Of a stretch of DNA of 64,000 bases, positions 4,436 through 61,631 are shown one piece after another; position 1 is the first letter of the stretch, and each line of letters starts with the position of its first letter. Source of the stretch: a virus (Duplodnaviria; Caudoviricetes). The notes beneath the pieces are model-generated. The model was not told the origin of the DNA. It made no database searches and saw only the letters and a program-made list of their open reading frames with translations. Made by a program: the position numbers and the translations under genes. The stretch covers positions 1-64,000 of the IMG/VR virus record IMGVR_UViG_2816332268_000002; one strand, given 5' to 3'.

Positions 4436-5515
4436 ATGCAAGCCACCCGCACCCGCCGTTCGAGCAAGAAGGCCACCCAGCAATCGATCCAACTCGACAT
4501 GCTGGGCTCGGTCGACGCTGCGATGGATCCGCAACTCGCCGAACTGCTGACGGCACTCGACGTCAACAACATCGCCAGTCCGAGCGCAGCGCTCGTAGAA
4601 GAAGCTGCCGAGCCGGTGGTCGAGCAAATCGAGGAGGTGCCGGCGCTGGTCGCCGACGCGGGCGAAGTCATCGAACTCCCGGAGACGGCCACCACGCAGA
4701 CCCAGGCGGACGCCGAGCTGGGCGCGCTGCTCGCGGCGATCGAGACGCCGGTCGCGGTTCAGAACGCCGCAATCCCGCTCGCGGAGATCGTCGCTCAGGT
4801 CGAGACGCAGGAGCACTACGCGATGGTCGCGCCCGATGCGCCGTCGCTGCCCGCGATGACGGACGAAGAGGCCGCTAAGGAGCGCCTGGTCGCTGAGGAA
4901 GCGCTGGCAGATGACCTGAAGGCGCAGGTCGCCGAGAACACCGCTGATCCCGAAGCGGCCGCAGCGAAGCGGGAACGCACCCCCCGCGTCCACTACGCGA
5001 ACAAGCTCGATAGGATCAAGGCCCGGCACGGCGACAACCTCGGGAACTATCTCGTGCTGGAAGTGGCCGATGCCGAGCTCGAGGGCGACGCTCTCAAGGC
5101 GAAGCAGGACGAGACGCTGGCGATCATCGACGGCATGGGCATGAAGGTGAAGAACCGCGCGTCGCTCCTGATCGATTGGGTGTCGGGCAAGGCGGCGAAG
5201 CCGAACGAAATCCTGAAGCGAGCGCTCGACGTGCTGGTGGCAGACGGCAAGATCACCACCGGTGAGAACGGTAACCTCCACAAGAACCTGATCGCCAAGC
5301 CGTATTCGGTCAGCGCGGCGCGTTCGATGGGCCGGAACACGGTCACGCTCATGGAGAAGCTGAAGATGCTCGTGCCGTCGGGTGAGAAGGGCACGTTCGT
5401 GCCGAATCAGGAATCGCTGCTTTTGATGGCGGCGCTCGCGAAGCACGGCGGCTCGGGCGCCGCGCCGGAAGCTGCAGCCGCAGAGCCGGCCGCCGAATCG
5501 ACTTCGGCGGAGTAA
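4436..5515 (+). CDS. Phage early protein with acidic Ala/Glu-rich N-terminus and putative winged-helix C-terminus
   Basis: AGGAG RBS, strong codon bias, downstream hairpin at 5523-5546. Confidence 0.75.
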   Translation: MQATRTRRSSKKATQQSIQLDMLGSVDAAMDPQLAELLTALDVNNIASPSAALVEEAAEPVVEQIEEVPALVADAGEVIELPETATTQTQADAELGALLAAIETPVAVQNAAIPLAEIVAQVETQEHYAMVAPDAPSLPAMTDEEAAKERLVAEEALADDLKAQVAENTADPEAAAAKRERTPRVHYANKLDRIKARHGDNLGNYLVLEVADAELEGDALKAKQDETLAIIDGMGMKVKNRASLLIDWVSGKAAKPNEILKRALDVLVADGKITTGENGNLHKNLIAKPYSVSAARSMGRNTVTLMEKLKMLVPSGEKGTFVPNQESLLLMAALAKHGGSGAAPEAAAAEPAAESTSAE

Positions 5516-5746
5516 GTAAGCGACAGGTGGGATGTGGCCCACCTGTTCCTCACAGACCAGAAGCCATGGCTGGCTGCGCCGCGGGCATGCCACCAGCCCG
5601 AATTCATCCCATACCTGTCTACCTTCCCGACGAGTTAGCCCGTCTCCAGCGCTAATCCACGCGCGTCTCTGCGATCCAAGTGCGCAACTTCTTGCGCGAT
5701 GCCCGCAAAAACTTGCGGAAAGTCCATCGCACCTTACTACAATGGA

Positions 5747-5764
5747 TACATCAGCGATGACTTA
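5747..5764. promoter_or_regulatory. Phage operator palindrome
   Basis: TACATCA-GCGA-TGACTTA upstream of the operon starting at 5822. Confidence 0.65.
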
Positions 5765-5821
5765 TTGACGCCGCGTGCGCGTTACGACAATTCATTCATC
5801 GCAACACAACACCAAATCGAA

Positions 5822-6472
5822 ATGACCACGACCGATTACACGGGCCATGCCCAGGCTATTGCCGAAGCACTCGGTGGGATCGCGACGCTCCAGAACCCAG
5901 AGTATGCGAACAACCACTTTTACATCGCCATGCCGGAGCGTGATACCGACGCCCAGATTCTGCTTCGCTTTTCGCCGTATCGTGCAAAGAACCGGCTTGT
6001 CGTAACTCCGTCGTTCAATCTGCTTGGCGAAAGCCGTCGCGGCAGCACTGCCGGCGTCAACAACCTTCGACCGGTTCAGTTCGAGCAGATCGGCTACGTG
6101 TCCGAAATTACGCTCGCAATCACCAAGACGCCGGCGCAGCTGGCGGCCGATATCGAGCGCCGCCTGCTGCCCGGATATCTGAAGGCGCTCGGGCTCGTTC
6201 GTGTCGAACTGAAGAGCGAGGCCGACGAAGAGGCTCAGCGCGACGCCGCGATGCAAAAGTTTGCGGGCATCGTCGGTGAGTGCTGGACGCCCGACAGTCG
6301 CGATAACAGGCGACTCCATGTGCATCGCACGAACACGCCGGCCGGCTACTCCGCGACCCTCGAGCTCCATACGAGTCAAGAGTGCAGCCTCGAGATTCGC
6401 TGGGTCAGCGCTGAACTCGCCGAAAAGATCCTCACGATGCTCGCGGAGCATGGCGAGGCAGAACGAGCATGA
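5822..6472 (+). CDS. Hypothetical phage protein, first gene of small-ORF early operon
   Basis: ATG after operator; stop overlaps next start (ATGA). Confidence 0.7.
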   Translation: MTTTDYTGHAQAIAEALGGIATLQNPEYANNHFYIAMPERDTDAQILLRFSPYRAKNRLVVTPSFNLLGESRRGSTAGVNNLRPVQFEQIGYVSEITLAITKTPAQLAADIERRLLPGYLKALGLVRVELKSEADEEAQRDAAMQKFAGIVGECWTPDSRDNRRLHVHRTNTPAGYSATLELHTSQECSLEIRWVSAELAEKILTMLAEHGEAERA

Positions 6473-6750
6473 GCGAGTTGACCAAAGAAGCGCTTGAGCG
6501 CCAACAAGAGATTCTCGCGGACATCGCATTCGAGGCAGGCAATCGCTGGGCTCGGGCCGATTCGAGAGCGTGCGGAAAGGTGATCGACGCATTGAACGGA
6601 TCGCGCGGCCTGATGGACGAGTTCATCGATTGGGCGAACGAATTCGACCTGTTGTGGGAGGCGGGCGAACTGGATCAGGAGGACTATATCGGCGAGCTTT
6701 GCCGGTTCGCCGACCGCAAACTGACCGAACTGTTCCGGGACTACGCATGA
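6469..6750 (+). CDS. Small acidic hypothetical protein
   Basis: ATGA coupling at both ends. Confidence 0.7.
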   Translation: MSELTKEALERQQEILADIAFEAGNRWARADSRACGKVIDALNGSRGLMDEFIDWANEFDLLWEAGELDQEDYIGELCRFADRKLTELFRDYA

Positions 6751-6986
6751 AGAAGCTCAATGAACCGATGCGGATCGTAGCGAGCAACGCCTGGGGCAGA
6801 GACACGGCCGCGCTTCATCAAGAGTTCGAGGTGGAGGTGTGCGACATCGGCATTCTGCTGCCGCACTACCTCGGACACAACCATCGCGGCTATGTGTTCG
6901 GGCTCGCGGACGTCGGCCGCGTGATCGTGAACATGACCGACGGCACTGGCTGGTCCTGCTGGGCGTTCAAGCCAGGTGCCGCATGA
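6747..6986 (+). CDS. Hypothetical protein
   Basis: MKKLNEP start; ATGA coupling. Confidence 0.65.
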   Translation: MKKLNEPMRIVASNAWGRDTAALHQEFEVEVCDIGILLPHYLGHNHRGYVFGLADVGRVIVNMTDGTGWSCWAFKPGAA

Positions 6987-7228
6987 GCGGTTCACTCCGT
7001 ATGAGCCAGCGCCCACTCGCGGCAGCGGGCTTCAAGAGCTATCGCTGCAAGGGCAGATTCGGCTGGATCATGATCGGCGCCAGCAACGTCGACGATGCCA
7101 TGCGAGAAGCGCGCCGCAGCTGCCCGGAGGCGAAGGTCATCGACCTCGAGGAGTGGAACGGAGAGCGCTACGTGCCCGTTTCGTTCGCAGACGTCCTGAA
7201 GAGCGCCATCGTGCGGTCGGGACAATAG
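6983..7228 (+). CDS. Hypothetical protein
   Basis: ATGA coupling; SYRCKGRFGWIMIGA. Confidence 0.65.
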   Translation: MSGSLRMSQRPLAAAGFKSYRCKGRFGWIMIGASNVDDAMREARRSCPEAKVIDLEEWNGERYVPVSFADVLKSAIVRSGQ

Positions 7229-7258
7229 ACATATCGAAACACAACGCGGGATATACCG

Positions 7259-7669
7259 ATGAAAGCAGCAGTCACTAAGATCCGCCTGCGCCGCGCTGAA
7301 GGAGGCGCGTCCTACCGCTGGGTCGAAGTCGGCTCGTGGGCTGACGCTAATTCACAACTGTGGACGTGGTCGAACACGGCGCCCAAAGGTGGCGCCTGCG
7401 ACAAGTGCGACTTCGAAGTGGAATGGGAGCACGGCGGGCAGTATCACGGCCGCTACGATCTGAAGCATTGGAACGACGAGAGTCCGGACCTGGCCGCACA
7501 CGTTTGCAGCAACGCCTACTTCTATACGGCGCGCCGTCAACCTTCGCACATGACGAACGCCGGCTATGCCGCTTTCCTTGCAGGCCACCAGTCCATTTGC
7601 GAGGACTACGAGCGCCTGCTGCAATGGTGCGACCTCGGCGTAGATGCGCACCCGGCGAAACTGTTCTGA
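7259..7669 (+). CDS. LPD25-like (polyvalent-protein-associated) domain protein
   Basis: GGACDKCDFEVEWEHGGQYHGRYDL resembles the recalled LPD25 YxKTDF..W.DG..Y.GR.DL pattern. Confidence 0.5.
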   Translation: MKAAVTKIRLRRAEGGASYRWVEVGSWADANSQLWTWSNTAPKGGACDKCDFEVEWEHGGQYHGRYDLKHWNDESPDLAAHVCSNAYFYTARRQPSHMTNAGYAAFLAGHQSICEDYERLLQWCDLGVDAHPAKLF

Positions 7670-7681
7670 GAGGGAGGCACA

Positions 7682-8008
7682 ATGTTCTGGATCATTACGA
7701 ACGATCATTTCGGAGACGGTCAGGTGGGCACTGGTAGATACACGACCATGGACTCGATCGTTGCCATCCGCGACACGAAGCTTCGACAGGAAGCGACGGA
7801 TCACTTTGTCGCCGAGCACCCCGAATTCAACGACGAGTTTCGACTGCTCGACGACGACCGCAATGTTTACTACACCGGCCGCTGTGTCGCGCTTGCTGAC
7901 GCCGATCAAGACGCGGCATTTGAGCCGCTCGATTGGGCAATGCCGCATGCGGGCTGCACGATCATGCAATACCGCAAGGTCTGGGCGATCGTATGGGAGG
8001 ATCTGTAA
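7682..8008 (+). CDS. Hypothetical protein
   Basis: GGAGG RBS; FRLLDDD..VYYTGR...FEPLDWAMP.AGCT. Confidence 0.7.
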   Translation: MFWIITNDHFGDGQVGTGRYTTMDSIVAIRDTKLRQEATDHFVAEHPEFNDEFRLLDDDRNVYYTGRCVALADADQDAAFEPLDWAMPHAGCTIMQYRKVWAIVWEDL

Positions 8009-8367
8009 TGCGAGTCCTCAACGCGCTGCGCGATTACCTCGCGCACTCCAAAAGCATCGCGATTCTGGAAGACGCCCAGCCTGTTGCTGACGAACTGAAG
8101 GCTGCCTATCTTGAGCTGCAGTTCGCGGACGAGAAGCTGCTCCATGCCGCGCGCAGGGCATACACCGATGACACCGACGACATCGAAATCAACGATGGCG
8201 CGGTCGTAGCACCGGCACCCGATGGCAAATGGATTCAGGCATGGGTCTGGATGCCGAACGATGATGACGCGTGCCGGGAGTGCGGCGAGGACAGCACGGG
8301 CGGAGAGGGTTACGACGGCCTCTGCGGAAACTGCGCGGATCGTGCGTTCGGCGAGAGCGAGGGCTGA
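8008..8367 (+). CDS. Hypothetical protein with C-terminal CxxC...CxxC zinc ribbon
   Basis: TAATG coupling; GGAGG RBS. Confidence 0.65.
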   Translation: MRVLNALRDYLAHSKSIAILEDAQPVADELKAAYLELQFADEKLLHAARRAYTDDTDDIEINDGAVVAPAPDGKWIQAWVWMPNDDDACRECGEDSTGGEGYDGLCGNCADRAFGESEG

Positions 8368-19897: not shown

Positions 19898-20551
19898 ATG
19901 GCAGGTTCAGCTACCCACATCCAGGTTTCGCAGGCGACCGTCCCGATCGACATGCTGCGACCGAACCCCTGGAACACCAACCACATGAGCCCGGAGAACG
20001 AAGCGAAGCTGGACGCGTCGCTGAAGCGTTTCGGCGGGCTCTACAAACCTGTCGTTGTCCGAACTGTTGACGACGGCGCGTTCGAGATCCTGGGCGGCGA
20101 GCACCGCTGGGAGAGCGCGAAGCGGATCGGTCTGACGGAGGTTCCGATCATCAACGTCGGCCGCATCAGCGACAAGGCGGCGAAGGAGATCGGCCTCGTC
20201 GACAACGGTCGCTACGGCGAAGACGACACCCTCGCGCTGTCGCGCCTGCTCAAGGAGCTCGGCAACGACGTCGCCGAATTCCTGCCCTACACCGACGGCG
20301 AGCTCACCGACATTCTCATGGCTTCGAGTATAGATCTCGACGAGCTGGATTCTGACGCTGAACCGCAGATGCCTGAGCTGCCGAGCGCAGGTGCCACGCA
20401 TCAGGTGATGCGCTTCAAGGTGCCTGTCGAGGATGTCGCGTGGATCACGTCCGCGATCGATCGCTCCTCGCGTGAACAGGGCTTCACGCAGGAAGACTCC
20501 ATGACGAACGCCGGCAACGCATTCGTCCATCTGATGAAGGCATACAAGTGA
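19898..20551 (+). CDS. ParB/Srx N-terminal domain protein 1
   Basis: LRPNPWNTN...EILGGEHRW. Confidence 0.88.
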   Translation: MAGSATHIQVSQATVPIDMLRPNPWNTNHMSPENEAKLDASLKRFGGLYKPVVVRTVDDGAFEILGGEHRWESAKRIGLTEVPIINVGRISDKAAKEIGLVDNGRYGEDDTLALSRLLKELGNDVAEFLPYTDGELTDILMASSIDLDELDSDAEPQMPELPSAGATHQVMRFKVPVEDVAWITSAIDRSSREQGFTQEDSMTNAGNAFVHLMKAYK

Positions 20552-21227: not shown

Positions 21228-21877
21228 GCCGAAATCATCCCCGAGTTACTCGTCGCGAGGGCACCTGGAAGGTCGCCGCGCTGGTCCCGTATGCGAAGAA
21301 CGTCAAGAAGCACGACGACGCGCAGGTGAACAAGATCGTCGAGTCGATCGAGCAGTTCGGCTGGACCCAGCCGATCGTCATCGACGACCACGGCGAGATC
21401 ATCGCCGGCCACGGCCGCCGGCTGGCGGCCATCAAGCGCGGCATGGAAGAAGTGCCCGTCGTGATCCTGTCGGGCCTGACCGACGAAGAGAAGCGCGCGC
21501 TGCGTCTCGCCGACAACCGCACGAACGAAGGCGGCATCGACACGCTGATGTTCCGCGATGAAGTGGCCGGCCTCGAATCGCTGCTGGTGGGCATCTTCGA
21601 CACGAAGGAGCTCGAGTTCTCCGCGGCAGACCTCGGCGAGCTCAACGTCGACGCATTCGTGCCCGACGTCGCGGAAGCCGTCGAGCAGCAAGAGCAAGAG
21701 GCGCACGCGAAAGCGGACGCGGTCAGCGCGCGCCGCGTGCCGCTCGCGAAGGTGTTCGGGTTCAAGGACATCGCCGGCGTCGACGAGATCCACGTATCCC
21801 GCTTCATGGCGCGCGTGCAGGCAGAAACGGGCCTGGCCGGCGCAGACGCGCTGGTCGCTTTTATTCGGCGCCAATAG
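21224..21877 (+). CDS. ParB/Srx N-terminal domain protein 2
   Basis: LVPYAKNVKKH...FGWTQPIVID...IIAGHGRRLAA...RLADNR. Confidence 0.9.
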   Translation: MSRNHPRVTRREGTWKVAALVPYAKNVKKHDDAQVNKIVESIEQFGWTQPIVIDDHGEIIAGHGRRLAAIKRGMEEVPVVILSGLTDEEKRALRLADNRTNEGGIDTLMFRDEVAGLESLLVGIFDTKELEFSAADLGELNVDAFVPDVAEAVEQQEQEAHAKADAVSARRVPLAKVFGFKDIAGVDEIHVSRFMARVQAETGLAGADALVAFIRRQ

Positions 21878-40825: not shown

Positions 40826-40843
40826 TAAGTCACTTATGACTTA
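40826..40843. promoter_or_regulatory. Operator overlapping NlpC start codon
   Basis: TAAGTCA-CTTA-TGACTTA. Confidence 0.8.
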
Positions 40844-54390: not shown

Positions 54391-54974
54391 TGAATCCGCT
54401 CGCGAAGATTGGTGTGCTTGCGCTTGCCTGCGCCATCGCCTTCGGCGCAGGCGCCTACGTCGACCGCCAGTTCGTGCTGGCATCGCGGGCAAAGCAGGAG
54501 GTGAAGGTTGTTGCGGGTGTAGCGACCGGCGTCGCAGTGGCGCAGACGAAGAGCAAGACGGTCGAGGCGGCAGTGACTGTCACTGCCGACAACATCGATC
54601 AGAACAAGGTCGCTATCCGTCATCGGGTTGCGGCGCAGATCAAGCGGGCCGTCGCGCCCGCGCCCACTCCCAGTGAGGAAGCACATGAAACGATGCGCGC
54701 TGCTTGCGGCGGCTTTTATCTTGATGTCGGCACTGTCCGCATGCTCAACGCAAGCCGCGCCGGAGTCGCTTTTCATTCCACCGCAAGCGGCGATGAAGCG
54801 GGCGACGCCGCTCCGGCCCTTTGCTTTACCGACTTCGTCGACGCCGACCAAGAACTGACGAAGCTCTACTTGGACCTGGCGCAGCGCCACGACGCGCTCG
54901 TCGATTCGGTGGAACAGTTTCAGAAGGAGCAGCGCGCGCGACTCGGTGTCGATGACACGCCGCTCGGCAAGTAG
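54390..54974 (+). CDS. Inner-membrane spanin (Rz-like)
   Basis: N-terminal TM, coiled coil, periplasmic Cys. Confidence 0.75.
   Translation: MNPLAKIGVLALACAIAFGAGAYVDRQFVLASRAKQEVKVVAGVATGVAVAQTKSKTVEAAVTVTADNIDQNKVAIRHRVAAQIKRAVAPAPTPSEEAHETMRAACGGFYLDVGTVRMLNASRAGVAFHSTASGDEAGDAAPALCFTDFVDADQELTKLYLDLAQRHDALVDSVEQFQKEQRARLGVDDTPLGK
54685..54858 (+). CDS. Outer-membrane lipoprotein spanin (Rz1-like), embedded in +1 frame
   Basis: GAGGAA RBS; MKRCALLAAAFILMSALSAC lipobox; Pro-rich mature part. Confidence 0.75.
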   Translation: MKRCALLAAAFILMSALSACSTQAAPESLFIPPQAAMKRATPLRPFALPTSSTPTKN

Positions 54975-55128
54975 GAAGCCTCCCCGAGCCGCATCTTCTC
55001 GGGGAGGATCTAGGATTGCTTGGGGCCAGGACCGCGCTCCCTCAATTTCTAACCTTTCTAAATTCCATGAACCTATACCTATAATTAATCTGAAACTTAT
55101 CAATAATGGAAATGAGAGGAAGCCCCAA

Positions 55129-55815
55129 GTGCTCCATGAATTTTTCGGCCAGTCGTTGACACCGGCGGATTGCGAAATGCTTGCGTTGTCTCGTATCGCG
55201 CCGTCGTCGCGGGCGGTGGAGGCGCTGCTATTTCTGCGTAAGTGGTTCGACTACCGCCATCTGCATCCCGTGCAAGCGACGTATCTATTCGCTCACGAGT
55301 ATCACGATGCAATCAAGCGGGCATACGCACGGCAGAAGGACATCCGCACTGTCGAGAAGATCAAGCCGATCGACGTAGCGGGGTTGTTCGATAGCCGGGA
55401 GCTGGCCGCCGTATGGCGAGCGAGGCAGGCGTTCGACGCGGTCGGATGCCGGTATGAGTTCGGCCTCGACTTCGTCGTGCGCCGGGCATGCGATCGCGGT
55501 TGGCGGACATTTCCCCGGCCCAACCAGCTCTATGCAGAAGAGGTGGCGCTGGATCTGCGCGACGCATGGATTGCCGAATGCAAGAAGTCAATCCAGCTGG
55601 CGCGTGACGAGCGTTTTCTGATTGAGAACTACCGCGGCCACCCTGACCAAATTGCATACCAAGCGTGGCAGATCGACCAGATCAAGAGCCGCGGTGGTAA
55701 CCGGGCAATGCTGCTTTCGCGGCTGCTGAGCGAGCGGGCCGTCTCTGAATCGGTGGCACGCGCGGCGTTCGGCGAGGTGACACTGCAGCAAGCGAAGCGT
55801 TTTTTTCTCAATTAG
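55129..55815 (+). CDS. Replication-module hypothetical protein
   Basis: GAGGA RBS, GTG start; KWFDYRHLHP. Confidence 0.7.
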   Translation: MLHEFFGQSLTPADCEMLALSRIAPSSRAVEALLFLRKWFDYRHLHPVQATYLFAHEYHDAIKRAYARQKDIRTVEKIKPIDVAGLFDSRELAAVWRARQAFDAVGCRYEFGLDFVVRRACDRGWRTFPRPNQLYAEEVALDLRDAWIAECKKSIQLARDERFLIENYRGHPDQIAYQAWQIDQIKSRGGNRAMLLSRLLSERAVSESVARAAFGEVTLQQAKRFFLN

Positions 55816-55817
55816 AG

Positions 55818-55841
55818 TAAGTAAGCAATGACTATAATTAA
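55818..55841. promoter_or_regulatory. Operator overlapping TATAAT
   Basis: AGTAAGTAAGCAATGACTATAATT is identical to the copy at 58766. Confidence 0.8.
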
Positions 55842-55880
55842 GTCATCGCTAATTTTTCATCAACTCACTGGAGTTCCAGC

Positions 55881-56264
55881 ATGACCCCCGAGCAAGCTCG
55901 CCAAGAACAGATCAACGCCGGCCGCCGAATGATTACGCTCGAGCATCGCACGCTCGAAAGCCGCACGGGCAGTGTCGCTCGTCCGCAGTATGGGGAACAG
56001 CGCCCGCGTGCCACCGCACGCCCGCCGAAGGGTCACGATGCCATCCTCAAGGCGATGCAGGAAGAACGTCAGCTCGCCACGATCATCACTACGGGTGACG
56101 TCACGTTCGAAGGGCTGGTGACCGGCCGCGACAAATATACGATCACGCTGCTGACCAAGCATCCGAAGGACTCGACGCGTCTGATTCGTCGCGTGTTCTA
56201 CAAGCATGCGATCGAACAGTTCTTCGGCGTGCCCCAGGACAGCGATACGTCGGCGGTGCAGTGA
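55881..56264 (+). CDS. hfq: Hfq-like Sm-fold RNA chaperone
   Basis: HDAILKAMQEERQLATI...FEGLVTGRDKYTITL...VFYKHAI aligns by eye to Hfq Sm1/Sm2 (YKHAI). Confidence 0.8.
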   Translation: MTPEQARQEQINAGRRMITLEHRTLESRTGSVARPQYGEQRPRATARPPKGHDAILKAMQEERQLATIITTGDVTFEGLVTGRDKYTITLLTKHPKDSTRLIRRVFYKHAIEQFFGVPQDSDTSAVQ

Positions 56265-57661
56265 TGAGCGTGGTGGCATTGTCAGCAGTGCCGTCGACGA
56301 CGCCGGCCGCAGAAGCGGCCGAGCCGCCGATGAGCAAGTTCCAGTTCGACGGTGACTTTCAGTCGCGTATTGCGGCCCTTACCCTGCGTGACACGTCCTT
56401 CAACCAGATGGTCGATGGGCTGGTCGAGCCGGGGCATTTCGAGTCTGAGATCGAGTCCTATCTTGTCAGCGTCGCGCTGCGCTACTGGAGCAAGTATCGC
56501 AAGGCACCGGCAAACATCGGCATCTACGCAATGCTATTGCGGGAAGACCTGGACGCCAAAGTGCTACCGAAAGCGCTCGGCGTTGCGGCGATCGCTCACC
56601 TGAAGAATCTGTTCGAGACGGACATTTCCGACCGCGACTTCGTGGTCGATCAGGTTGCGACGTTCGCTCGGCATCAGGCCATGCAGGCTGCGATGTTCAA
56701 GGCGATCCCGAAGCTCGACCGCAACGATTTCGACGGCATTTCGAAGCTCATGCAGACGGCGCTGAACGTCGGCGCGAACGCAGAGGGGGACACCTACGAT
56801 TTTGCGGCGTCGATTGACAACCGCACCGGCATCCGTCTGGAGCGCGCGTCGGGCAAGCTGCCGCCGCAAGGCATCACGACCGGCTACCGGGTGATCGACG
56901 ATCTGCTCTATCACCGCGGCTGGGGCCGCAAAGAGCTGTCGGTGCTACTGGGCGCTGCGAAGGCGGGCAAGACGACCGCGCTGATCGACTTCGGCATCGG
57001 TGCTTGGGCCGCCGGCCACAACGTCTACTACGCGTCGTGTGAAGTCTCGCGGGAGGTGATCTCCGACCGGATGGACGCCAACATCGCCGAGCAGGCAATG
57101 ATGGAGCTCGGGGCGCACACGCACGAAGTCCGCGACAAGGTTCGCCTGTTCGCAGACCGCGCGCGGCGCGCCGACGGCACGAACGCGAAGTTCATGATCG
57201 ACGAGTTCCCGACCGGCTCGCTGAAGGTGTCGGAGCTTCGTCGGCGTCTCGAGCGGTTCAAGCAGCAGGGCATCGTTTTCGATCTGGTCATCGTCGACTA
57301 CGCCGACATCATGTCGCCGGAGCGAGTCACGGACTCCGCGATCGAGAATTCCAAGTCGGTCTACGTTGACCTGCGCGGGTTGGCGATTCGAGAAGGGCTC
57401 GCAGTGCTGACCGCAACGCAGTCGAACCGGATCGGCGCGAACGCGAACGTCATCAAGGCCGAGCACGTCGCTGAAGACTTCAACAAGGTCCGTATCGCAG
57501 ACATCATCATTTCGATCAACCGCACCGAAGAAGAGCGCGCAGCGGGCCGGGCTCGGCTGTATTTCGCAGCGTCGCGAAACCAAGGCGGGGAATTCACGAT
57601 TGAGATCGAGCAGGCGATGGACCGGATGAAGTTCATTACCAAGGTGCTCGGCTTCGCATAA
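56261..57661 (+). CDS. dnaB: Replicative DnaB-like helicase
   Basis: GITTGY, GAAKAGKT, IVDYAD, TATQSNR. Confidence 0.92.
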   Translation: MMSVVALSAVPSTTPAAEAAEPPMSKFQFDGDFQSRIAALTLRDTSFNQMVDGLVEPGHFESEIESYLVSVALRYWSKYRKAPANIGIYAMLLREDLDAKVLPKALGVAAIAHLKNLFETDISDRDFVVDQVATFARHQAMQAAMFKAIPKLDRNDFDGISKLMQTALNVGANAEGDTYDFAASIDNRTGIRLERASGKLPPQGITTGYRVIDDLLYHRGWGRKELSVLLGAAKAGKTTALIDFGIGAWAAGHNVYYASCEVSREVISDRMDANIAEQAMMELGAHTHEVRDKVRLFADRARRADGTNAKFMIDEFPTGSLKVSELRRRLERFKQQGIVFDLVIVDYADIMSPERVTDSAIENSKSVYVDLRGLAIREGLAVLTATQSNRIGANANVIKAEHVAEDFNKVRIADIIISINRTEEERAAGRARLYFAASRNQGGEFTIEIEQAMDRMKFITKVLGFA

Positions 57662-57670
57662 GGAGCAACA

Positions 57671-58774
57671 ATGGCGACTGACGATCTGTCAGAGCTGCTG
57701 GATACCATCGATATGCCCTCGTGGATGGATCGCGAGGGCATTTCTTATCGGCTCACGCACGGCCGATCGGGCCAGCAAATCAACGTGCGGGAATGCCCGA
57801 CGTGCGGCAACTCCGACTGGAAGGTCTACGTCAACGCCGACACCGGCGTCGGCAACTGCTTCGCCGGCTCGCACCCGGTCGAAGAGCGGATCTTCACCAA
57901 ATACCGGTTCATTCGCGACCATCTGGGTCGGCCGCACGGTTCGAAAGTCATCGAGCACATCAGGGCATACGCGCGCGAACAGGGCTGGCGGCCGGCGCGA
58001 CGTCAATCCGTCGAGGTCGAGAAGCATGTCGGCTGGGAGCTGCCGCAGCACATCGACCTACCTCATGAGGGGCGCAACCTCGCCTATCTCGAGAACCGCG
58101 GCATCACTGCGGACCTGTCTGCGTATTTTCACCTCGCCTACTGCCCGCGCGGTGCGCACTTCCGGTATCCGGCCGAGCGTGGTTGGGCCTACCAGGACTA
58201 CAGCGCACGCGTGCTGATCCCGGTGTTCGACATGGATGGGAAGCTCGCGACATTTCAGGGGCGCGACGTGACCGGCCATGCCGAGAAGAAGTATCTCTTC
58301 CCGCCGGGCATCGATGGATCGGGCGTGCATCTGTTCAACGGGCTCAACGTCCACGACACGAAGCGCATAGCGGTAGGTGAGGGCGCGTTCGACGTAGCGG
58401 CGATCAAGATCGCGCTCGACGCGGATCCGCAACTGCGCGACGTGGTTCCGGTGGGCACGTTCGGCAAGCACCTGTCGTCGGGCAGCGATAACAGTCAGCT
58501 CGCGAAGTTCATGTTGCTCAGGGAGCGCGGCGTCGAGGAGGTGACCTTCATGTGGGATGGGGAAGTTCAGGCGACCGACGACGCGGTCGAGGCCGGATTG
58601 ATGCTGCGCCAGCACGGGTTTCGCGTGCGTATCGCAATGCTTCCGCCCGAGAAAGATCCGAACGAGGTGCCTGCCGAGGTGGTGCGGCGCGCGTTCTATG
58701 GGGCGACGCTGCTGAACGGGGTGTCAGCGATGCAGCTCCGAATGAGTCGTCGTATTATGAATTCAAGTAAGTAA
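57671..58774 (+). CDS. DNA primase (Zn finger plus TOPRIM)
   Basis: ECPTCG..C, FQGRD, KKY, GEGAFD, MWDGE, KDPNE. Confidence 0.9.
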   Translation: MATDDLSELLDTIDMPSWMDREGISYRLTHGRSGQQINVRECPTCGNSDWKVYVNADTGVGNCFAGSHPVEERIFTKYRFIRDHLGRPHGSKVIEHIRAYAREQGWRPARRQSVEVEKHVGWELPQHIDLPHEGRNLAYLENRGITADLSAYFHLAYCPRGAHFRYPAERGWAYQDYSARVLIPVFDMDGKLATFQGRDVTGHAEKKYLFPPGIDGSGVHLFNGLNVHDTKRIAVGEGAFDVAAIKIALDADPQLRDVVPVGTFGKHLSSGSDNSQLAKFMLLRERGVEEVTFMWDGEVQATDDAVEAGLMLRQHGFRVRIAMLPPEKDPNEVPAEVVRRAFYGATLLNGVSAMQLRMSRRIMNSSK

Positions 58775-58785
58775 GCAATGACTAT
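58768..58785. promoter_or_regulatory. Operator overlapping TATAAT
   Basis: TAAGTAA-GCAA-TGACTAT. Confidence 0.8.
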
Positions 58786-58815
58786 AATTCAGGTATCAGC
58801 AATTTCGGAGGTGTC

Positions 58816-59283
58816 ATGAAGCTACGGCGCAGCTTTTCCCAGCACGAGCTCGGCACGAAGGCATATCAGGTCATCGAGGTGGAGATCGATGACAAGTTCG
58901 CCGTCGTCAATCAATACGGCAAATTCAATCCTGGCGACTCGATAGAGGGGTGGAGCGCGAAGGTAGATCTGAGTGGGCCGTATTCGTGGACTAAGTCGCG
59001 CGATCTGCAGGACAAGAAGATCAACGAGAAGCGGCGGCGCGGCTACAAGGAGTGGGATGCGTCCGAATTGTCGTTTGGTTCGGAGCGCGAGCTGATGGAC
59101 GCGTTGAAGCGCCTCATCGGGCCATTCAAGGCCGAAGCAGTCCGGCAGCTTCTCGTCGGCGGGGCTTCCCGCGCGGTTTCCGATGACTCGCCAGTGGGCG
59201 CTCCCGAAAATGACACCAAGGGCAGCAAGAAAGTGCCCGCACCGCGAACCGAAGAATCGACGCCCGAATGGGCCACTTGGTAG
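58816..59283 (+). CDS. WGR-like domain protein
   Basis: TKAYQV...VNQYGK...KKINEKRRRGY; GGAGG RBS. Confidence 0.55.
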   Translation: MKLRRSFSQHELGTKAYQVIEVEIDDKFAVVNQYGKFNPGDSIEGWSAKVDLSGPYSWTKSRDLQDKKINEKRRRGYKEWDASELSFGSERELMDALKRLIGPFKAEAVRQLLVGGASRAVSDDSPVGAPENDTKGSKKVPAPRTEESTPEWATW

Positions 59284-59292
59284 GAGAAGGTA

Positions 59293-59946
59293 ATGACCGA
59301 ACAAGCAACGGCGCCCGCAGTCATGCCGCCGGCCACCTCTGCTGACGGCAAGCGCAATGCGTTCTACACGGACTGTCTGAGCCTGAAGGTGAAGAAGCCG
59401 TATGCGGCGTGTCAGCACATCGCGGATCACGCGAATGACGCGTCGATTCAGGCGATCTACGGCGACTGCCTGACCGAGATTCGCCAGTGCCGCTGCACTG
59501 CGCTCGACATGCGTCAGAAGGAGCAGCTGGAGGGGCGCGCGATCTACTTCATTGAGCGAGTGAAGGGCGAAGCGATCGTCGCGCATCAGCAGCAGGCATG
59601 GGTGTCGCCGCTGTCGACAAAGCGCTCCCGCACGCAGCGAAGCGCTGTGCCGGCGCCCGTATCGAAGCCCGCTGACATCCTGACTCAGCCGGCGATCGGC
59701 ATCGACATTCATGCGGCCGTGCTCAACCGGATGGTGGCGCAACGCTCGCAGCCGATTGCCGAAGCAGTAAACGCAACTAACGGTCAGATTGCGCCGACCC
59801 ATACACCCGCCGCTATCGCGGCGGCCGAAACCCCTGCCGCCACGAACGGGGCGCTTCCCAAGCTCGTTATCCGAGCAGGCGAGTCGCCGTTCGAGGCGAT
59901 CCAGCGCATGAAGCGCGAGCGTCAAAACCAACAGGCCCACGCATGA
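59293..59946 (+). CDS. Cys-containing hypothetical protein
   Basis: AGGAG RBS; YAAC...C...C.C.AL.MR. Confidence 0.7.
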   Translation: MTEQATAPAVMPPATSADGKRNAFYTDCLSLKVKKPYAACQHIADHANDASIQAIYGDCLTEIRQCRCTALDMRQKEQLEGRAIYFIERVKGEAIVAHQQQAWVSPLSTKRSRTQRSAVPAPVSKPADILTQPAIGIDIHAAVLNRMVAQRSQPIAEAVNATNGQIAPTHTPAAIAAAETPAATNGALPKLVIRAGESPFEAIQRMKRERQNQQAHA

Positions 59947-60223
59947 GCGACCCATCTACAAGCCGATCGAGCAGGTTGCGATCGGCCAGCAATTCATCGA
60001 CCTCGATACGCGCGCTCGCATGCTGCGCATCGGCAACATCATGTCGGGCCACCGGCCGTCGCTCGCTGAAGAATTCCAGCGTCAGGAGCTGCACAGCGTC
60101 GCGCTCGAGCCCGGAAAGCTGCTGGATGGCCGGCCGTTCCCGGCCGGCCAGGTCTTCACGATGCGTCGCAACGAGGCGGTGGAGGTCATCAACATCGAAC
60201 CCGAACATCACACAAAAGGATAA
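59943..60223 (+). pseudogene. Small ORF with apparent 1-nt deletion (or sequencing error) in C-run at ~59951
   Basis: Adding one C gives MSDPIYKPIEQVAIGQQF... in frame with the 60020-60223 ORF. Confidence 0.55.
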
Positions 60224-60238
60224 GTCACGAATGACTCA
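60221..60238. promoter_or_regulatory. Operator overlapping ligase start
   Basis: TAAGTCA-CGAA-TGACTCA. Confidence 0.7.
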
Positions 60239-61631
60239 CATGAACTCCGACCAAGCTTTCGCGGCGATCGAGAACATCGCAGCCACCTCCAGCAAGAACG
60301 ACAAGCAGGCGATGGTGAAGCAGTTCCTCGCGTTCGACACGTTCAAGCGCGTGCTCGTCGCAGCGCTCGACCCGCTGACCACCTACGGCATGACGCAGGT
60401 TCCCGGCCCGATCGAGAACGCGGCGCCCGGTGCGAACACGTTCGAGAACGCGCCGGTCTGGGACTGCCTGGACAAGATGGCGAAGCGCGAGCTCACCGGC
60501 AACGCGGCCCGCGACGAGGTGCAACGCCTCATGACGTTCCTGACGCCCAGCTCGGCCGAACTGTTCAAGCGGATCATTCGCAAGGATCTGCGCGCCGGCT
60601 TCTCCGAGTCGACGGTCAACAAGGCATGGAAGGGGCTGATTCCCGAATTCCCCTACATGCGTTGCGCGCTGCTGAAGGACGCGAAGCTCGATGCGTGGAC
60701 GTGGGGCGAGGGCGTTATCTCGCAGGAGAAGGCAGACGGCATGTTCATGAATGTCGACCACGAGACGGGCGGGGTGGTTCGCATCACCAGTCGCCAGGGC
60801 TCGCCGTTCCCTCTCGAGGCATTCGGTGGTTTCGTTGACCACGTCCGCGCCTTGTTCCCGGCCGGCACGCAGACGCACGGTGAAATGCTGGTGCTCGTCG
60901 ACGGCGCGATCGCCCCGCGCGAAATCAGCAACGGCATCCTGAACCGCATTTCCGCGGGCGGCGAGTTCGAAGCCAACGAAGTGCCCCGGTTCTTCGCATG
61001 GGATCAAATCCCGCTGAGCGTCGTCGCGCCGAAGGGCAAATACGAAGTCGGCTACTGCGAACGCATCAAGGCGCTGCTGCTCGGGCTGGCGGCCGGCGCA
61101 CGCGCGCTGCCGGGAATCGACCCGATGATTCAGCATATTCCGACTCGCATCGTGCATTCGCTCGAGGAGGCGCTCGCCCACTACCGCGAGCTCCTGGCGC
61201 AAGGCAAGGAAGGCACGATCATCAAGAACGGCAACGCGATCTGGAAGGACGGCACGAGCAAGGAGCAGATCAAGCTCAAGCTTGAGGTGGACGTCGACCT
61301 TAAGTGCATCGCGATCGTGGACGGCCGCACCGGCACGAAGAACGAGGGCCGTGCCGGTTCGCTGACCTGCACGTCGTCCTGCGGTCAGCTTCAAGTCGAC
61401 GTGACCGTGAAGAACGAGGCGCTGCGCGACTCGATCGACGCGAACCCGAACGACTTCATCGGCCGCATCTTCGCGGTGCGCGCGAACTCGATCATGAAGC
61501 CGTCCGAGAGCAACGCGTTGCACTCGCTGTTCCTCCCGCGCATGGTCGAGGCGAGCTATCGGATCGACAAGACCGAAGCCGACGACCTGGCCCGCGTCGA
61601 GCATCAGTTCGCATCGGCGGTGGCGGCATGA
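60231..61631 (+). CDS. ATP-dependent DNA ligase
   Basis: QEKADG (KxDG), HGEM, EGTIIK, IKLK, SLFLPR. Confidence 0.93.
   Translation: MTHMNSDQAFAAIENIAATSSKNDKQAMVKQFLAFDTFKRVLVAALDPLTTYGMTQVPGPIENAAPGANTFENAPVWDCLDKMAKRELTGNAARDEVQRLMTFLTPSSAELFKRIIRKDLRAGFSESTVNKAWKGLIPEFPYMRCALLKDAKLDAWTWGEGVISQEKADGMFMNVDHETGGVVRITSRQGSPFPLEAFGGFVDHVRALFPAGTQTHGEMLVLVDGAIAPREISNGILNRISAGGEFEANEVPRFFAWDQIPLSVVAPKGKYEVGYCERIKALLLGLAAGARALPGIDPMIQHIPTRIVHSLEEALAHYRELLAQGKEGTIIKNGNAIWKDGTSKEQIKLKLEVDVDLKCIAIVDGRTGTKNEGRAGSLTCTSSCGQLQVDVTVKNEALRDSIDANPNDFIGRIFAVRANSIMKPSESNALHSLFLPRMVEASYRIDKTEADDLARVEHQFASAVAA

Follow-up and report, generated by a model that had tools for sequence, protein, structure and literature searches.

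A divergent Hfq/Sm-family protein encoded next to the replicative helicase gene in a lineage of phages, proviruses and phage-plasmids

Few RNA regulators of bacteria have been studied as thoroughly as Hfq. The described proteins closest to the phage protein analyzed here are the Hfqs of Gram-positive bacteria (Staphylococcus aureus, PDB 1KQ1/1KQ2; Bacillus subtilis, 3AHU/3HSB; Listeria, 4NL2), which are the best matches of the profile of its family (E 1.5e-6 to 9e-6). They share with the phage protein the fold, the D-K-Y of loop 3 and the YKHAI of the Sm2 motif, and they too have no arginine rim of the Escherichia coli type. The phage protein differs from them by an invariant His in place of Gln8, an Arg in place of Phe/Tyr39, the lack of a distal aromatic residue, seven extra residues between strands β3 and β4, a 50-residue N-terminal arm and the nature of its gene, which is phage-borne and coupled to dnaB. 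The Hfqs of E. coli and Pseudomonas (PF17209; TIGR02383) also have the Sm fold in common with it (TM-scores normalized to the target of ~0.75-0.86), and the equivalents of E. coli residues G34, D40, Y55, K56, H57 and I59 are kept. However, identity to the E. coli protein is only ~26%, residues R16/R17/R19, Y25 and I30 are not conserved, and there is no acidic C-terminal tail.

The phage helicase loaders G39P (SPP1) and P (λ) are encoded by small genes located just 5′ of, and co-translated with, a gene for a DnaB-type helicase, after a candidate initiator-sized gene. The Hfq-like gene described below resembles them by position only, with no similarity of sequence or fold. RegA of phage T4, an RNA-binding translational repressor, is also translationally coupled inside a replication cluster, so position alone cannot separate a role in replication from a role in regulation. 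The “Hfq-like domain” proteins of Mycobacterium phages Tonenili and Phabba, as well as gp39 of Adephagia, have predicted Sm-like folds and 11-17% identity to the Hfq-like protein, with which a common family is not established. An Hfq-like fold in phages is listed in a structural survey, and in the gene table gp39 of Adephagia lies two genes before the integrase gene gp41 (PMC11373665).

The Hfq-like gene is located in an IMG/VR provirus record of 104,464 bp, estimated to be 94% complete, the first 64 kb of which (the window) were analyzed. Features of the gene and its product are as follows.

55870..55873, + strand: ribosome-binding site GGAG, 7 nt 5′ of the ATG, read from the sequence
55881..56264, + strand: Hfq-like gene, 127 codons plus TGA
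55884..55934, + strand: N-terminal helix motif, residues 2-18 (R7..Q10...G14-R15.T17-L18), with a helix predicted over residues 3-16 (pLDDT ~94)
55935..56027, + strand: Arg/Pro-rich linker, residues 19-49 (pLDDT 55-82), variable in length and sequence within the family
56028..56231, + strand: Sm/Hfq core, residues 50-117, a helix (52-61) and five β strands (pLDDT 93-97)
56157..56183, + strand: β3-β4 loop (L4), residues 93-101 (KHPKDSTRL), longer than in solved Hfqs

ORF 55881-56264 encodes a divergent protein of the Hfq/Sm family. Its residues 53-114 match the Hfq profile PF17209 with 26.6 bits (E 4.5e-6; Pfam cut-off 27 bits), and a six-frame search of the record gave 27.1 bits for the same ORF. 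A phmmer search of 1.84 billion cluster representatives revealed 165 clusters (50% identity) at E≤1e-3. Residue counts given throughout refer to an alignment of 112 family members, 96 of which match PF17209 at E≤1e-3 (best 7e-13). The single sequence gave weak matches to solved Hfqs in the PDB (E 0.24); a profile of 21 homologues matched ~35 distinct Hfq chains, the best being B. subtilis 3AHU (E 1.5e-6) and S. aureus 1KQ1 (E 2.1e-6). The AlphaFold model, built with 112 homologues, has a mean pLDDT of 85.8 (93-97 over residues 50-117) and places the five strands at residues 65-70, 75-83, 87-93, 101-107 and 111-117. A Foldseek comparison of this model with the PDB returned 155 matches at E≤1e-3; all among the matches listed are Hfq, with TM-scores normalized to the target of 0.63-0.89, mostly ≥0.75.

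Within the Sm1 and Sm2 motifs, G78, D84 and K108 are invariant, Tyr or Phe occupies position 107 in 112/112 members, and H109 and I111 are found in 94/112 (Ser in 16) and 99/112, respectively; residues 106-114 of the protein read FYKHAIEQF. Both the fold and the homology are secure, on the basis of the Pfam match, the PDB profile, the AlphaFold model, the Foldseek results and the family-wide matches to PF17209. An Sm fold with the YKHAI signature of Hfq had been recognized in the first-pass annotation, which proposed a PF17209 search as a check; this reading was borne out by the match close to the Pfam cut-off, the PDB profile and the listed Foldseek matches, and the predicted structure is indeed an Sm fold (helix plus five strands).

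The same annotation called the protein an Hfq paralog, which is not supported if a copy taken from the host is meant. The protein is only ~26% identical to E. coli Hfq, Gram-positive Hfqs score best, its scores lie far under the cut-offs of the NCBIfam equivalog models (21.3 bits vs 61.7 for TIGR02383; 14.3 vs 95 for NF001602), and it belongs to a separate family of phages and phage-plasmids. No match at E≤1 was found to PF21979 (Hfq_1, a cyanobacterial Hfq-related family). This profile is matched by 5/112 family members, and the nearest ESM-Atlas clusters carry it in 22-79% of their members.

The hallmark of the family, derived from the 112 aligned sequences, is K-G-H-[DE]...G...R-D-K-[FY]-T-I-T...[YF]-K-H-A-I-E-x-F. 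In the alignment with E. coli Hfq (NC_000913.3), Q8-D9 correspond to H52-D53 and S38-F39-D40-Q41-F42 to G82-R83-D84-K85-Y86. The positions most conserved among the 112 members are those on the pore (proximal) side. In the proximal pocket, H52, D/E53 and K108 are present in all members (112/112 each), K/R85 in 106, F/Y86 in 111 and H109 in 94. The position of Gln8 is thus occupied by His in 112/112 sequences, and the replacement of QD by HD noted earlier was confirmed. The other replacement noted then, of SFDQF by GRDKY, is correct as an alignment, but it is less unusual than supposed: since S. aureus Hfq also reads YDKY, the D-K-Y part does not set the phage protein apart. The sole change in loop 3 that departs from all aligned Hfqs is that of Phe39 to Arg, a residue conserved in 95/112 members.

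The other binding faces of Hfq are remodelled. On the rim, the position of R16 (residue 60) is Gln in 92/112 members, that of R17 (residue 61) is Asp or Glu in 68/112, and position 63 is Gly, Lys or Arg. On the distal face, the position of Tyr25 (residue 69) is Thr, Ile or Val and aromatic in none of the members, and that of Ile30 (residue 74) is Glu or Asp in 70/112. Because the protein lacks the arginine patch of the rim and the A-tract site of the distal face, with which Hfq acts as an sRNA-mRNA matchmaker, we infer from the sequences that the protein is not a general riboregulator.

Two further features reported in the first-pass annotation, a lengthened loop and an Arg-rich N-terminal extension of ~50 residues, were also found to be real. 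HMMER alignments with the B. subtilis, Listeria and S. aureus Hfqs place a 7-residue insertion between β3 and β4, and the family median for the length of the segment L90-V105 is 12 residues, vs 8 for its E. coli counterpart. The N-terminal 50 residues include 9 Arg. An N-terminal arm of this kind occurs in about two thirds of the family. The helix motif at the start of the extension is present in ~65% of the 112 members, and about a third lack it.

The Hfq-like gene lies in a region encoding proteins of DNA replication, the neighbouring genes of which are listed below.

55129..55815, + strand: PHROG 2500 gene of unassigned function (phrog_2500, E 5.7e-45), with a likely GTG start inside ORF 54946-55815
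56264..57661, + strand: DnaB-like replicative helicase (PF03796, E 1.2e-13; phrog_19, E 2.8e-71), alternative start GTG at 56261
57671..58774, + strand: DnaG-type primase, third gene of the unit (PF08275 and Toprim_2; phrog_47, E 3e-47)

The PHROG 2500 protein resembles its homologues only from about ORF residue 50-68 onwards, and the GTG at 55129 follows a Shine-Dalgarno-like GAGAGGAAG. A TATAAT-like site was noticed at ~55075-55086, and the ORF start at 54946 is probably wrong. The AlphaFold model of this protein is all-α (pLDDT 92.8, pTM 0.88). Searches of Pfam, PDB sequences, Foldseek (E>0.6), VIA-align (Z≤4.1) and the Atlas gave no meaningful match, and the protein is a candidate replication initiator by its position only.

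The order Hfq-like gene-dnaB is kept in all 83 related loci examined, with a phrog_2500 homologue upstream in nearly all; these loci belong to one broad lineage, and their synteny may partly reflect shared descent rather than independent replication. In 20 loci (from IMG/VR and including the 64-kb window) the arrangement is phrog_2500/Hfq-like/dnaB/primase/ligase, with Hfq-like proteins 32-100% identical. In 20/20 of these the dnaB start overlaps the stop codon of the Hfq-like gene or follows it by ≤9 nt. The same order was found in 63 further loci of a more distant subfamily (DnaB 37-50% identical). All 63 have a candidate dnaB start between -10 and +10 nt from the stop codon of the Hfq-like gene, most commonly as an ATGA overlap; these gaps are biased towards small values, as the nearest in-frame start was chosen, yet in each locus the reading frame of the helicase extends as far as this start without interruption. 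By contrast, the gap between dnaB and the primase gene varies from ~9 to ~1900 nt, with ORFs inserted.

The proposed coupling of the Hfq-like gene to dnaB was therefore upheld, but not the GTGA overlap through which it had been described. A start at ATG 56264 (TGATG, with a 1-nt overlap with the stop codon) appears more likely than one at GTG 56261, because a T[GA]ATG junction recurs in 13/20 loci, some of which lack any GTG option.

Of the roles suggested at first reading, i.e. interference with host Hfq, chaperoning of sRNAs and action in replication, the last is favoured by the invariant coupling to dnaB, and the missing arginine patch of the rim and the missing distal site make chaperoning of sRNA-mRNA pairs less likely. 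We consider an accessory role with the phage helicase-primase machinery the preferred reading and assign it a probability of roughly 40%. It is favoured by the unbroken coupling to dnaB, the conserved helix on its tether and the lack of a canonical single-stranded DNA-binding protein (SSB; PF00436) in the 94%-complete record.

We infer that the protein forms an Hfq-type ring that binds single strands. Such a ring would bind U- or T-rich strands through the preserved proximal pocket (H52 for Gln8, D53, K85, Y86, K108, H109) and would be made in a fixed ratio with DnaB. With its six-fold symmetry, it could hold a single-stranded template or primer and touch the helicase hexamer, for which most members might use the conserved N-terminal helix on the flexible basic arm; in this way it might aid helicase loading or priming. 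Searches for known helicase-loader families (DnaC/IstB, λ P, SPP1 G39P) in Pfam, NCBIfam, PDB sequences and folds returned only Hfq, and a weak search found no fused or longer Hfq-helicase forms. If the replication role is correct, it would widen the known range of Sm proteins and provide a new helicase accessory factor. A tentative proposal is that the Hfq/Sm ring is a component of the DNA replisome itself, which docks on the DnaB hexamer or assists in its loading, or hands over primers or ssDNA, via its six N-terminal arms; it would then represent a new class of helicase accessory and the first Hfq-family protein with DNA replication as its primary job.

The lack of a recognizable PF00436 SSB in the 94%-complete record could also mean that the ring replaces an OB-fold SSB and coats or holds ssDNA at the fork. 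The location of the gene inside the replication operon is consistent with such a substitution, as is the crystallization of E. coli Hfq with DNA (PDB 5UK7, among the fold matches). We consider it improbable, however, as a host SSB or an unrecognized phage SSB could serve, relatives without the Hfq-like gene replicate, and coupling to dnaB suggests amounts close to those of the helicase and not the excess typical of an SSB.

The Hfq-like gene is preceded by a recurrent promoter-operator motif, whose copies are located as follows.

55817..55838, + strand: promoter-operator motif GTAAGTAAGCAATGAC+TATAAT (22 nt: GTAAGTAAGCAATGACTATAAT), -10 hexamer at 55833-55838
55819..55855, no strand assigned: imperfect palindrome around the -10 hexamer, with arms 55819-55833 and 55841-55855 (15 nt each, 80% complementary, 7 nt apart)
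58767..58788, + strand: next motif copy, identical over 22 nt, at the start of the following transcription unit (ORF 58816-59283)
40826, 47824, 53113, 55818, 58768 and 60221, + strand: motif copies in the 64-kb window
66894, 73528, 78658 and 97368, + strand: motif copies elsewhere in the phage genome

The pattern TAAGT[CA]A-N4-T[GT]AC occurs in ~10 copies on the + strand of the 104-kb genome vs 0.03 in shuffled sequences, and usually runs into TATAAT. A scan with the σ70 consensus called no + strand promoter at the Hfq-like gene, and the motif has no canonical -35 element. The operator and TATAAT promoter assigned to the gene at first reading were supported, as a promoter-like site, by this enrichment and by the complementary arms. 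Since the copies at 40826 and 47824 are full palindromes (TAAGTCA-N4-TGACTTA), the motif suggests a dimeric regulator whose operator would overlap the -10 element of most phage promoters. Most related loci, as well as an Acinetobacter phage-plasmid, have a similar motif 5′ of the Hfq-like gene. The Hfq-like gene is the first cistron of an Hfq-like/dnaB/primase unit behind this phage-wide motif. Two identical copies (55817 and 58767) bound the unit, and because the motif precedes the Hfq-like gene here and in relatives and recurs before the next unit, the three genes look like one regulated unit.

Plasmids use RNA helpers such as Rom and FinO, which, together with RegA of T4, provide analogies for an RNA-binding regulator directed at the phage itself. 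The ring would bind U-rich parts of phage RNAs, such as its own leader, the helicase-primase mRNA, or an antisense or primer RNA, and would thereby set how well the replication operon is translated or how stable its mRNA is. This reading, also tentative, is nearly as likely as the helicase-primase accessory role. The conserved residues are exactly those of the Hfq pocket for uridine and 3′ ends, the gene is the first behind a regulated promoter, and many carriers are phage-plasmids, in which copy-number control matters. It is weakened by the absence of both faces that Hfq uses to bind and anneal mRNA, the arginine patch of the rim and the distal site, by an Rfam search of the 64-kb window that found no family, and by leader hairpins 5′ of the gene that are no more stable than those of shuffled sequences (z -0.9 to +1.0). 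For the latter reason, a leader hairpin with a U-tract was dropped as a candidate self-binding site. If correct, this reading would reveal a chaperone encoded by mobile elements that controls their replication operon.

The distribution of the gene also bears on the preferred accessory role in helicase-primase function. The Hfq-like gene is present in the isolated Pseudomonas phages nickie, Nican01, phiK7B1, ZY21 and hairong (Nickievirus phages are among the carriers), and on circular, non-mobilizable, phage-plasmid-like plasmids of 106-118 kb in Cupriavidus, Acinetobacter baumannii and Aeromonas. The gene arrangement is the same in nickie and in the Cupriavidus, Acinetobacter and Aeromonas phage-plasmids. 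A tblastn search of 50,697 phage records with the Hfq-like protein gave no match, and the nickie homologue surfaced only through synteny and a profile search; a scan of genome contigs gave one short irrelevant match.

Homologues of the helicase (36-52% identity) are found on 927 plasmids, mostly non-mobilizable and including those of the SSU5/pHCM2 type. Those listed are mainly of ~105-117 kb and come from Klebsiella, E. coli, Acinetobacter, Enterobacter and Salmonella (pHCM2/SSU5-type and AB-type). As these plasmids are mainly of phage-plasmid types, the integrated Burkholderia-type provirus belongs to a wider phage-plasmid supergroup. The provirus record encodes a tyrosine integrase at its far end (103301-103765, - strand), and two ORFs with ParB_N domains are located at 19937-20206 and 21305-21517.

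Siphophages, proviruses and phage-plasmids of ~105-117 kb form a large lineage in which the Hfq-like gene belongs to the core. The gene accompanies that of the helicase widely but is dispensable: homologous DnaB and primase are encoded by pHCM2 and Rhizobium phage RHph_X66, both of which lack the Hfq-like gene, so DnaB does not need the Hfq-like protein. As related elements manage without the gene, the ring would be an optional helper of the helicase and not an essential loader.

Interference with the host was also considered, in which the protein would mix into or compete with host Hfq hexamers, or sequester host sRNAs. The gene is phage-borne, and the shared YKHAI region of the Sm2 strand is a subunit contact in Hfq. 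Nevertheless, identity to a proteobacterial Hfq is ~26%, and the family is equally conserved across hosts as distant as Burkholderia, Pseudomonas, Acinetobacter and Aeromonas, a range more in keeping with a partner from the phage itself than with mimicry tuned to one host. Moreover, interference leaves the strict coupling to dnaB unexplained, none of the results points to poisoning of host Hfq hexamers, and we regard it as very unlikely.

A distinct and widespread branch of Hfq therefore rides phages and phage-plasmids, including elements common in A. baumannii; its binding faces are remodelled, and the link of its gene to that of the replicative helicase is unbroken. A literature search turned up no study of this family or of its link to the helicase, and the Nican01 paper does not mention hfq. 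In sequence records, the family is named “RNA chaperone Hfq” in Burkholderia cepacia, B. vietnamiensis, Cupriavidus, Acinetobacter and Aeromonas, and “hfq” in Nican01, while in nickie, phiK7B1, ZY21 and hairong the gene is annotated as hypothetical. PGAP assigns the label “RNA chaperone Hfq” with GO:0006355 despite scores of 14-26 bits vs equivalog cut-offs of 61.7 and 95. This automatic name, with its transcription-regulation term, is over-specific and overstates what is known of the protein.

Several minor observations were made within these loci. In one of them (L100, IMGVR_UViG_3300050143_000047, ~5216-8018) the match to dnaB starts at query residue 238, ~2 kb past the stop codon of the Hfq-like gene, which suggests that the helicase gene holds an insertion (an intein, an intron or a homing-endonuclease gene). 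The 215,656-bp contig IMGVR_UViG_3300046694_000296 (L006 and L015) carries two diverged copies of the module ~108 kb apart and may represent two joined related genomes of ~105 kb, or a chimeric assembly. Finally, the first ~90 codons of the ATP-dependent DNA ligase ORF (59943-61631) are Ser/Arg-rich and have no homology in relatives; the true start of this gene is probably the ATG just past the motif copy at 60221 (MTHMNSDQAF...).
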